A DNA stretch of 56,567 nucleotides from a virus. Its lineage: Duplodnaviria; Caudoviricetes. The notes under the pieces were generated by a model. The model was given only the letters and a program-made list of their open reading frames with translations. It searched no databases and was not told the origin of the DNA. Location of the stretch: positions 1-56,567 of the IMG/VR virus record IMGVR_UViG_3300031237_000257. One strand, 5' to 3'. The position numbers and the translations under genes are program-made. Below are positions 40,986-41,930 of this stretch, piece after piece. The stretch's first letter is position 1. The number at the start of each line of letters is the position of its first letter.

Positions 40986-41294
40986 ATGGCAGATCAAGAA
41001 AATCCCGAGGCGATAACCGAAGCGGATGTTACGTTCACGGTTCACGAATTTATGCAGTACCTGGCGAACGTTGGGCGATCCGACAAATGCCCTGTCTGCC
41101 CCCACCAAGGAGAGTGGGTGTTTCACACGACCCTTGAAAATGAGGAAGTGCTCATCGTCCACCTCATCCAAAAAGCAAGCAACAGCCAGGAATACACTCC
41201 TGTAGCGACAATGGAATGTCCCAGGTGCGGATTTATCTCCCAAACGAGCCTGATCGCAGTGAAAGATCATTTTGTCACGGTGAGGGCGCGATAA
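40986..41294 (+). CDS. Zinc-ribbon protein
   Basis: AGGAG RBS; CPVC ... CPRCG. Confidence 0.82.
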   Translation: MADQENPEAITEADVTFTVHEFMQYLANVGRSDKCPVCPHQGEWVFHTTLENEEVLIVHLIQKASNSQEYTPVATMECPRCGFISQTSLIAVKDHFVTVRAR

Positions 41295-41903
41295 ATGACT
41301 GAGCTGAAGCTTGTATCTGATCGCACCAAGTCGGGAAGCTGGACCTCTACAGCGACGACGTCCAGCTACGCTCAGTTTTCATCCATTGGGCCCGAGGACG
41401 CAGCGATGCTCAGGAAGTTCTTAGCTGAGAACGAGGCGCCTAACGTTTTTCCTGAGCCAACTGATCAGATCAGCGAAGACGTGGACACCTTATCCGGTCA
41501 GAGCCATAATCAGCCGATGACAGACATCACCGATTACCGTAACGAACTCAAGTTCAGAGATGAATCTCTTCGCCGGGAGCTAGACTTGCGCCAGGAGTCT
41601 TTTCGGTCTGAGCAAGCTATCCGCGACAAGGCGCTTGATGAAAAATTTGCCGGTTTTCTAGCTGTTCAGGCAGAGCGCGATAAGCGCCTGGATGGCTCAC
41701 TTACAGCAATTCATGATGACATTTCTCGGCTTGGCAGTCTGAAATTGAGCATCTGGGGTGCGATGTTTACAGGCCTTGCAATCACTCTTACGGTTATTGG
41801 GCTTGGAATTACTTCTTACCAAGCAGGACAGACAGACAGGCGTCCTCCTGTGGATGCTCCCCGCGCAGAGGCAAGTCAAGCGCCCCCAGTAACACCAAAA
41901 TGA
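41295..41903 (+). CDS. Coiled-coil protein with C-terminal TM helix
   Basis: TAAATG junction; IWGAMFTGLAITLTVIGLGI. Confidence 0.8.
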   Translation: MTELKLVSDRTKSGSWTSTATTSSYAQFSSIGPEDAAMLRKFLAENEAPNVFPEPTDQISEDVDTLSGQSHNQPMTDITDYRNELKFRDESLRRELDLRQESFRSEQAIRDKALDEKFAGFLAVQAERDKRLDGSLTAIHDDISRLGSLKLSIWGAMFTGLAITLTVIGLGITSYQAGQTDRRPPVDAPRAEASQAPPVTPK

Positions 41904-41905
41904 AG

Positions 41906-41930
41906 AAGCCCGCCGAGTGCGGGCTTTTTT
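41906..41930 (+). terminator. Terminator of immunity operon
   Basis: AAGCCCGC-cgagt-GCGGGCTT followed by TTTT. Confidence 0.8.

Follow-up and report, generated by a model that had tools for sequence, protein, structure and literature searches.

The rexA and rexB genes of phage lambda lie inside the immunity region, and lambda RexB has four membrane helices. In the Pseudomonas putida prophage P1, RexAB is encoded downstream of the repressor gene, after two further genes; both genes of this system are needed, and its membrane protein damages the membrane (PMC12894663). In the Salmonella prophage BTP1, the bstA gene is likewise downstream of cI, and its expression in lysogeny is high (PMC8585504). 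Here we describe two adjacent genes, referred to as gene 1 and gene 2, which are located directly behind the cI-type repressor gene in a 56,567-nt stretch of viral DNA (IMG/VR record IMGVR_UViG_3300031237_000257; Duplodnaviria, Caudoviricetes), the whole of which is called the window. Gene 1 encodes a predicted small zinc-ribbon protein and gene 2 a predicted helical membrane protein, and we consider the pair to be a good candidate for a new defence system.

Like RexAB, the pair consists of two genes located 3′ of the repressor gene and co-oriented with it inside the immunity region, and one of the products is predicted to be cytoplasmic and the other to reside in the inner membrane; by analogy, membrane-based abortive infection would be expected. 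The sequence-only reading of the window had seen no resemblance to Rex, and this agreed with a Pfam search at E ≤ 1, in which gene 2 matched no family and gene 1 matched zinc-ribbon families below threshold only; RexA and RexB models are presumably held in Pfam. RexA is a larger DNA-clamping dimer, whereas gene 1 encodes a zinc ribbon of 102 amino acids, and RexBpp of P. putida is predicted to have four membrane helices (PMC12894663), whereas a single segment is predicted in gene 2. From these comparisons, the module is like RexAB in layout and expected logic, but outside that family by sequence and predicted membrane-helix count. BstA shares with the pair the position of a prophage defence gene directly 3′ of cI, with the repressor promoter presumed to be shared, and a placement kept across hosts (PMC8585504); on the other hand, it is a single protein, described as acting at phage DNA replication sites, with no membrane partner, and it is unrelated to genes 1 and 2 by sequence, as judged by the lack of a PADLOC match. 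When the defence-catalogue check suggested by the sequence-only reading was carried out with PADLOC-DB v2.0.0, a library dating from 2023, none of its 5027 models matched gene 1 or gene 2 at E ≤ 1. No description of such a pair was found in a literature search that left newer catalogues and subscription journals outside its scope. The exclusion genes of Pseudomonas phage Fc02 (PMC9936078) were set aside as different genes of a different phage type.

The gene pair behind cI and its conservation

The window comprises a Pseudomonas-type lambdoid phage genome. Its closest phage records by blastn are Pseudomonas phages matching the cI gene only. The spacer of 61 nt between cI and gene 1 contains no terminator-like site, and its folding is like that of shuffled sequences (z = −0.52), in agreement with the earlier claim that the pair follows cI directly without an intervening terminator. 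The TAA stop codon of gene 1 abuts the ATG start codon of gene 2 with 0 nt between them, and the strong terminator claimed to end the pair was recovered as well (Table 1): a GC stem with the core GCCCGC/GCGGGC is followed by six T, and a hairpin at this position is also predicted on the minus strand. We read the operator-like repeat sets on the two sides as OR and OL, which places the four genes between them, namely cI, gene 1, gene 2 and a DUF1654 gene, inside the putative immunity region, like rexA and rexB in lambda. The proposal that the pair occupies the slot equivalent to rexAB is borne out in this respect, with a position downstream of cI, the same orientation, a location within the predicted immunity region and a closing terminator. 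The flanks also follow the lambda layout: on one flank, cII-type (Phage_CP76) and Rha-type genes come after cro on its strand, and RecT is found on the other flank. The GC content of the cassette is 0.50–0.53, versus 0.55–0.65 in the flanks.

Conservation of the pair was evaluated from both of its sides. Among 34 viral loci fetched via gene 2, a gene with a CxxC...CxxC pattern is located directly 5′ of gene 2 in 27 (the others are taken up below), and among the loci fetched via gene 1, for which a sub-family alignment was used, a gene-2-family gene is located directly 3′ in 16 of 16 (12 of these contigs were new and 4 were shared). The co-occurrence of homologues, by which the sequence-only reading had wished the pair to be checked, is in this way seen from either gene. 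In all 26 pairs examined, the distance between the end of the stop codon of gene 1 and the start of gene 2 ranges from −16 to +1 nt, and this overlap or abutment of the reading frames suggests translational coupling. Upstream proteins of at least 150 aa, encoded on the same strand within 1.3 kb, carry Peptidase_S24 in 44 out of 48 distinct cases. In the genus of the Pseudomonas genome G001, 29 of 401 genomes have a gene-2-family match; 11 of the 30 gene-2 loci from these genomes have an adjacent gene 1, and one more has a gene 1 at the contig end. By this comparison of sequences, genes 1 and 2 are one conserved module behind the repressor.

At least two other types of small gene, unrelated to the zinc ribbon, are also seen in its place, each accompanied by its own gene 2 N-terminus. 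One of them encodes a helical protein (L007, L009, L011, L030, L032, L068 and L073) and the other a protein of 113 aa (L016, L079 and L082); for the two such genes scanned with Pfam, no family was assigned.

The two proteins and their co-variation

The cysteine knuckles noticed earlier in gene 1 are CPVC at residues 35–38 and CPRC at residues 78–81. Only 6 close homologues were found besides gene 1 itself. The small genes 5′ of gene-2 relatives align with it, C35, C38, W44, C78 and C81 being invariant (n = 29), and the same four cysteines are also invariant in 74 gene-1-family sequences. A gene 1 profile was run against 1.84 billion sequences, each representing one cluster at 50% identity; it matched 3570 of them at E ≤ 1e-3, of which 288 reached E ≤ 1e-10, and the 150 matches listed are 87–145 aa long. 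Many gene-1 relatives end in acidic C-terminal tails. In the AlphaFold2 model (pLDDT 87.5), an N-terminal helix is followed by a beta-ribbon bearing both knuckles and by a C-terminal helix. With two conserved CxxC knuckles on a modelled beta-ribbon, gene 1 is assigned to the four-Cys zinc ribbons.

Assignment of gene 1 to a named family was less productive. No family reached threshold in Pfam, NCBIfam or PADLOC, zinc-ribbon matches in Pfam being sub-threshold, and the sole match in PHROGs was phrog_4293, of unknown function (E 1e-5). The model had no Foldseek match in the PDB at E ≤ 1e-3 (best E 0.087), and in the wide fold search with VIA no hit reached Z ≥ 5 (best Z 3.7); the nearest folds were MqsA-type or NrdR-type zinc-ribbon domains. 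One unnamed viral protein of 87 aa in BFVD had the fold of gene 1 (E 8e-6, TM 0.70/0.81). When the profile was compared with the sequences of solved structures, two matches were obtained, each at E of about 0.08 and both to the zinc site of archaeal RNA polymerase.

Gene 2 can be divided into a variable N-terminus (residues 1–77), a long charged helix (78–150, with 31 charged residues out of 73), a membrane segment at about 151–175 and a Pro-rich tail. In its AlphaFold2 model (pTM 0.30), residues 1–77 mostly have pLDDT below 60, a single helix extends over residues 78–179 and the last 23 residues are disordered. The hydrophobicity profile has one peak, at about 151–175 (Kyte-Doolittle maximum 1.74), about 27 residues lie C-terminal to the membrane segment, and the bulk of the protein is predicted to be cytoplasmic. 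The disordered N-terminus and the single C-terminal transmembrane segment described by the sequence-only reading are both consistent with these results; the coiled coil of that description stands as a long charged helix.

Homologues of gene 2 numbered 63 at E ≤ 1e-3, and a wider profile gave 85 at E ≤ 1e-5; all of the named ones are annotated as ‘hypothetical protein’ of Pseudomonas or Stutzerimonas, and matches in the ESM Atlas were confined to ‘hypothetical protein’ clusters. An alignment of 30 members revealed an invariant F..Q.ERDKR core (F121, Q125 and E127–R131), preceded in most members by a motif of the type M-N-D-I-T-R-E-E, and several unrelated versions of the C-terminal membrane segment. 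No family was assigned to gene 2 by Pfam, PHROGs, PADLOC or NCBIfam, and Pfam and PADLOC returned nothing even at E ≤ 1. Likewise, tblastn against 50,697 phage records gave nothing at E ≤ 0.01, and comparison of the profile with the sequences of solved structures gave 0 matches. Among the 30 relatives, 9 matched PF07798 (CCDC90-like, DUF1640) at E ≤ 0.1, with a best value of 0.0031, and one matched phrog_1193 (XhlA-type ‘hemolysin’) at E 7e-4. Proteins of these two types resemble gene 2 in having one C-terminal membrane segment behind a charged helix; however, the window protein itself matched neither, and the matches of its relatives are below the curated thresholds.

The dependence of the two genes on each other was evaluated in 49 distinct gene 1/gene 2 pairs. 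Similarity between gene 1 sequences correlated with similarity between the first 30 residues of gene 2 (Spearman 0.32, reached by 0 of 1000 permutations) and did not correlate with similarity between its last 110 residues (Spearman −0.14); its correlation with the tail of the upstream gene was weak (Spearman 0.16, 31 of 1000 permutations). In the comparisons between like gene 1 sequences (n = 56), the gene 2 N-terminus was shared in 37 and the C-terminus in 10, and in the comparisons between unlike ones (n = 832) a like N-terminus was never observed and a like C-terminus was observed in 124. For instance, the loci L017 and L018 are nearly identical in gene 1 and in the gene 2 N-terminus and differ in the gene 2 core. 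Since gene 1 tracks the N-terminus of gene 2, gene 1 and the first few dozen codons of gene 2 appear to be inherited as one unit, for which binding of the gene 1 protein to the N-terminal peptide of gene 2 would be the simplest functional reading. Prediction of a complex from gene 2 residues 1–150 and the gene 1 alignments, run without controls, gave a score of 0.10 (mark, 0.32), which counts neither for nor against binding.

Gene 1 was also found beyond Pseudomonas and with other partners. A gene-1-family match was obtained in 8 of 400 scored genomes of the class to which G001 belongs. In 5 of 7 gene-1 loci from other Gammaproteobacteria (G001 excluded), gene 1 is followed by a gene for a small protein that has a strongly hydrophobic segment, as judged by a Kyte-Doolittle scan alone; two of these five proteins are short, charged and helical, with a membrane segment at the end. 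Of the other two loci, one has gene 1 directly 3′ of an S24 repressor gene with no called partner, and in the other nothing follows gene 1. In two Pseudomonas-type loci, gene 1 is located 5′ of a different predicted coiled-coil protein. A small membrane protein is probably a general theme among gene-1 partners. Gene-1 relatives accompanied by other short charged-helix proteins, which the gene 2 profile missed, were also noticed at L100:4335-5025, L109:4282-5006, L171 and L174. As an extension that we regard as speculative, the gene-1 family could comprise a widespread and so far undescribed class of zinc-ribbon ‘gatekeepers’ on interchangeable membrane effectors, forming a plug-and-play abortive-infection system in the prophage repressor operons of Gammaproteobacteria; equally speculatively, each member of the family would dock on the matching N-terminal peptide of its small membrane effector.

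The slot behind cI and its surroundings

In many Pseudomonas prophages, a small conserved gene of 75–87 aa is located between cI and a variable cassette, which at several loci is the gene 1/gene 2 module. This anchor gene (alignment A7) starts with M-x-L-T-K-P-N-Q and ends near Y-A-D-E-V (examples, L008:4276-4512 and L006:4356-4580), belongs to no family in Pfam and has 307 relatives in IMG/VR. In order to survey the slot, we took the best 80 of the 307 anchor-gene loci (L088–L167, about 4240–7000) and scored the next cassette on the same strand; one representative per cluster was scanned (51 proteins with PADLOC and 22 with Pfam), and matches were extended to members with at least 35% identity. 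A PADLOC-matching cassette came next in 34 of the 80 loci: PDC-M24 in 10, PDC-M66 in 4, Rosmer RmrT/RmrA in 4 and 2 weak ones, PDC-S42 in 3, PDC-M11, PDC-M63A and PDC-S48 (weak) in 2 each, and PD-Lambda-2, PD-Lambda-5, PDC-M32 and PDC-M53 in 1 each. Cassettes of the gene 1/gene 2 type occupied the slot in 8 loci: five had both genes, two combined gene 1 with a different coiled-coil protein, and in one gene 2 had a non-zinc partner. PIN, HATPase, DUF7946/7947, DUF6731 or MqsA cassettes were found in a further 11 of the 80. Judging from these contents, defence systems have a hot spot in the stretch that follows cI and the anchor gene. The cassettes without assignment, among them a pair of 118 and 231 aa and a pair of 409 and 69 aa, are defence candidates themselves.

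In the P. putida prophage P1, PP_3897 and PP_3898 sit between the repressor and RexAB, and their deletion caused no sensitisation to two phages (PMC12894663). The start of PP_3898, as far as it can be read from the published deletion primers, may resemble the anchor gene rather than gene 2, a weak inference; if PP_3898 is indeed anchor-like, the negative result of its deletion has no bearing on the gene 1/gene 2 module. None of the matches in the wider gene-2 profile search was named PP_3897 or PP_3898.

The features around the pair are summarized in Table 1. The neighbouring DUF1654 gene has a LexA-box-like sequence at its 5′ side, and the motif CTGT-N8-ACAG was found within 150 nt of the start of the open reading frame in 33 of 55 distinct DUF1654 loci, where about 0.015 per 300 nt would be expected by chance. 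In most related loci, the DUF1654 gene is convergent with the cassette and ends the hot spot. LexA control of DUF1654 has been predicted and a cisplatin phenotype reported in a 2016 preprint (10.1101/072470). A further CTGT-N8-ACAG motif is present in the window at 1960–1975.

Table 1. Position of the gene pair and of surrounding features in the window
Feature	Position	Strand	Remarks
cro-like gene	39982-40161	-	PF14549 P22_Cro, E 2.1e-18; divergent from cI
OR-like operator repeats, two copies of TTCAGCATGCTT-type half-palindrome	40188-40248	.	Repeat families D1-D3 common with 42346-42410; I6 palindrome
cI-type repressor, 217 aa	40271-40924	+	HTH_3 + Peptidase_S24, E 6e-27; phrog_4 transcriptional repressor, E 8e-51
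cI/gene 1 spacer, 61 nt	40925-40985	+	Shine-Dalgarno AGGAG 7 nt 5′ of gene 1 ATG
Gene 1 (P0001), four-Cys zinc-ribbon protein (predicted), 102 aa	40986-41294	+	
Gene 2 (P0002), predicted tail-anchored helical membrane protein, 202 aa	41295-41903	+	
Intrinsic terminator closing the cI-gene 1-gene 2 unit	41905-41930	+	-19.1 kcal/mol, z -3.6, 0/200 shuffles as good
LexA-box-like CTGT-N8-ACAG 5′ of DUF1654 gene (neighbour, outside the pair)	42017-42032	.	
DUF1654 gene, inside the putative immunity region	42052-42303	+	PF07867, E 3e-21
Terminator of the DUF1654 gene	42309-42336		z -4.3
OL-like operator repeats, three copies	42346-42410	.	Promoter-like site 42381-42410 aimed rightward at early-left genes
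RecT, among early-left genes	45408-46418		Downstream of OL-like repeats

Possible roles of the pair

The reading that we prefer, and hold with somewhat less than even confidence, is that lysogens express the pair as an anti-phage module of two parts, a membrane effector and a cytoplasmic protein that controls it. Genes 1 and 2 would be expressed by the prophage together with the repressor, presumably by co-transcription with cI. The single C-terminal helix of the gene 2 protein would anchor it in the inner membrane, so that the long charged helix and the variable N-terminal peptide would face the cytoplasm, and gene 1, a small cytoplasmic four-Cys zinc ribbon, would dock on this peptide and control the activity of gene 2. 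A cue from an infecting phage would then alter this control, and gene 2 molecules would assemble via their helices and damage or depolarise the membrane, by which the infection would be stopped (abortive infection). As far as the sequence goes, gene 1 could either activate gene 2 or restrain it.

Several observations weigh against this reading. The argument from the hot spot is one of guilt by location: 15 of the 80 surveyed loci have cassettes without assignment and 13 have no same-strand gene called, many of the PADLOC matches are PDC models, which are candidate systems according to the description of the library, and the anchor gene on which the survey was based is absent from the window. 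As for the pair itself, unrelated small upstream genes replace the zinc ribbon in 6 of the 34 gene-2 loci (five helical and one other), and in one locus a gene 2 of 298 aa is located directly 3′ of the repressor. In 6 Pseudomonas species genomes, a lone gene-2 paralogue is found directly 3′ of a conserved LysR-family gene (L074, L080, L081, L084, L085 and L086, with LysR confirmed by Pfam in one of them); these paralogues have neither gene 1 nor a repressor gene nearby and appear to be chromosomal and non-prophage. At 4 more chromosomal loci a gene-2 relative is likewise alone, with no gene 1 and no repressor. Since gene-2 relatives stand alone in chromosomes, the gene 2 protein does not need gene 1 and possibly has a housekeeping role, and these loci, together with the locus L034 described below, leave room for a role at DNA entry or outside defence. 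Part of the co-variation could stem from linkage and not from a binding interface, because the conserved core motif of gene 2, located just after the N-terminal peptide, is an obvious recombination site. Finally, the anatomy of the pair would suit blocked DNA entry or a toxin-antitoxin logic about as well as a sensor with an effector. The sensor/effector defence system proposed by the sequence-only reading is in this way partly supported.

Superinfection exclusion at DNA entry, which we consider unlikely, would mean that inner-membrane gene 2 blocks channel formation or genome injection by tailed phages, that gene 1 aids only the folding, insertion or level of gene 2, and that infected cells survive. 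It would suit a small protein predicted to be tail-anchored in the inner membrane with a short periplasmic tail, and one gene-2-family member out of 30 has a weak match to a tape-measure PHROG (E 7e-4). The last of the 34 gene-2 loci (L034) has a different context that also fits: a gene-2-like gene of 319 aa at 4641–5600, with no gene 1, is flanked by a tail-chaperone-like gene and a tape-measure-like gene of 1547 aa, and its product has the full gene-2-type core and membrane segment plus about 85 extra C-terminal residues. The HK97 gp15 exclusion moron occupies this position too, between tail chaperone and tape-measure genes (PMC3594210). HK97 gp15 is similar to the predicted gene 2 product also in being a small prophage-expressed inner-membrane protein with chromosomal relatives that have no defence activity (PMC3594210); the L034 gene and gp15 are compared here by position, not by sequence. 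On the other hand, gp15 is the product of a single gene, whereas gene 2 of the window is found in the immunity region and coupled to gene 1. Moreover, the part of gene 2 with which gene 1 co-varies is its cytoplasmic N-terminus, and most of the protein is predicted to be cytoplasmic with few residues beyond the membrane segment, both of which argue against exclusion at entry. To our knowledge, exclusion proteins of the HK97 gp15 kind are encoded by single genes, whereas here a cytoplasmic partner is tightly coupled.

A role outside defence is in our view also rather improbable; the pair would then be a lysogenic-conversion or regulatory accessory, for example tuning envelope physiology or stress responses or modulating induction. 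The LysR regulator adjoining the chromosomal gene-2 paralogues, the sub-threshold PF07798 matches of gene-2 relatives to a family with a coiled coil and a membrane segment, and the neighbouring SOS-box-linked DUF1654 gene are in line with such a role. However, the module is highly diverse, its parts are shuffled, and at one slot its place is taken in other prophages by bona fide defence cassettes; such a pattern is typical of conflict genes.

A toxin-antitoxin-like addiction module, in which gene 2 would be a membrane toxin, gene 1 a labile antitoxin and prophage stabilisation the main role, is quite unlikely: the small upstream gene does overlap or abut a downstream membrane-protein gene in the antitoxin-toxin order that is usual for such modules, many gene-1 relatives have acidic tails, and MqsA-type and PIN cassettes fill the same slot in other prophages, but the partnerless chromosomal gene-2 relatives argue against intrinsic toxicity and the repressor operon already couples expression to lysogeny. 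A holin-like role of gene 2 in lysis was rejected because gene 2 sits in the repressor operon.

If the pair protects lysogens, as the preferred two-part anti-phage reading would have it, it would represent a compact system whose two genes belong to protein families without annotation. The variable zinc ribbon, apparently docking on the variable N-terminus of a conserved effector, would offer a testable model for the swapping of specificity and effector parts. If true, the region behind cI in Pseudomonas lambdoid prophages would be a defence hot spot that can be mined further, the cassettes still without assignment in the survey included. Which phages can be isolated on Pseudomonas strains, or used against them, also depends on prophage-borne defences of this kind.

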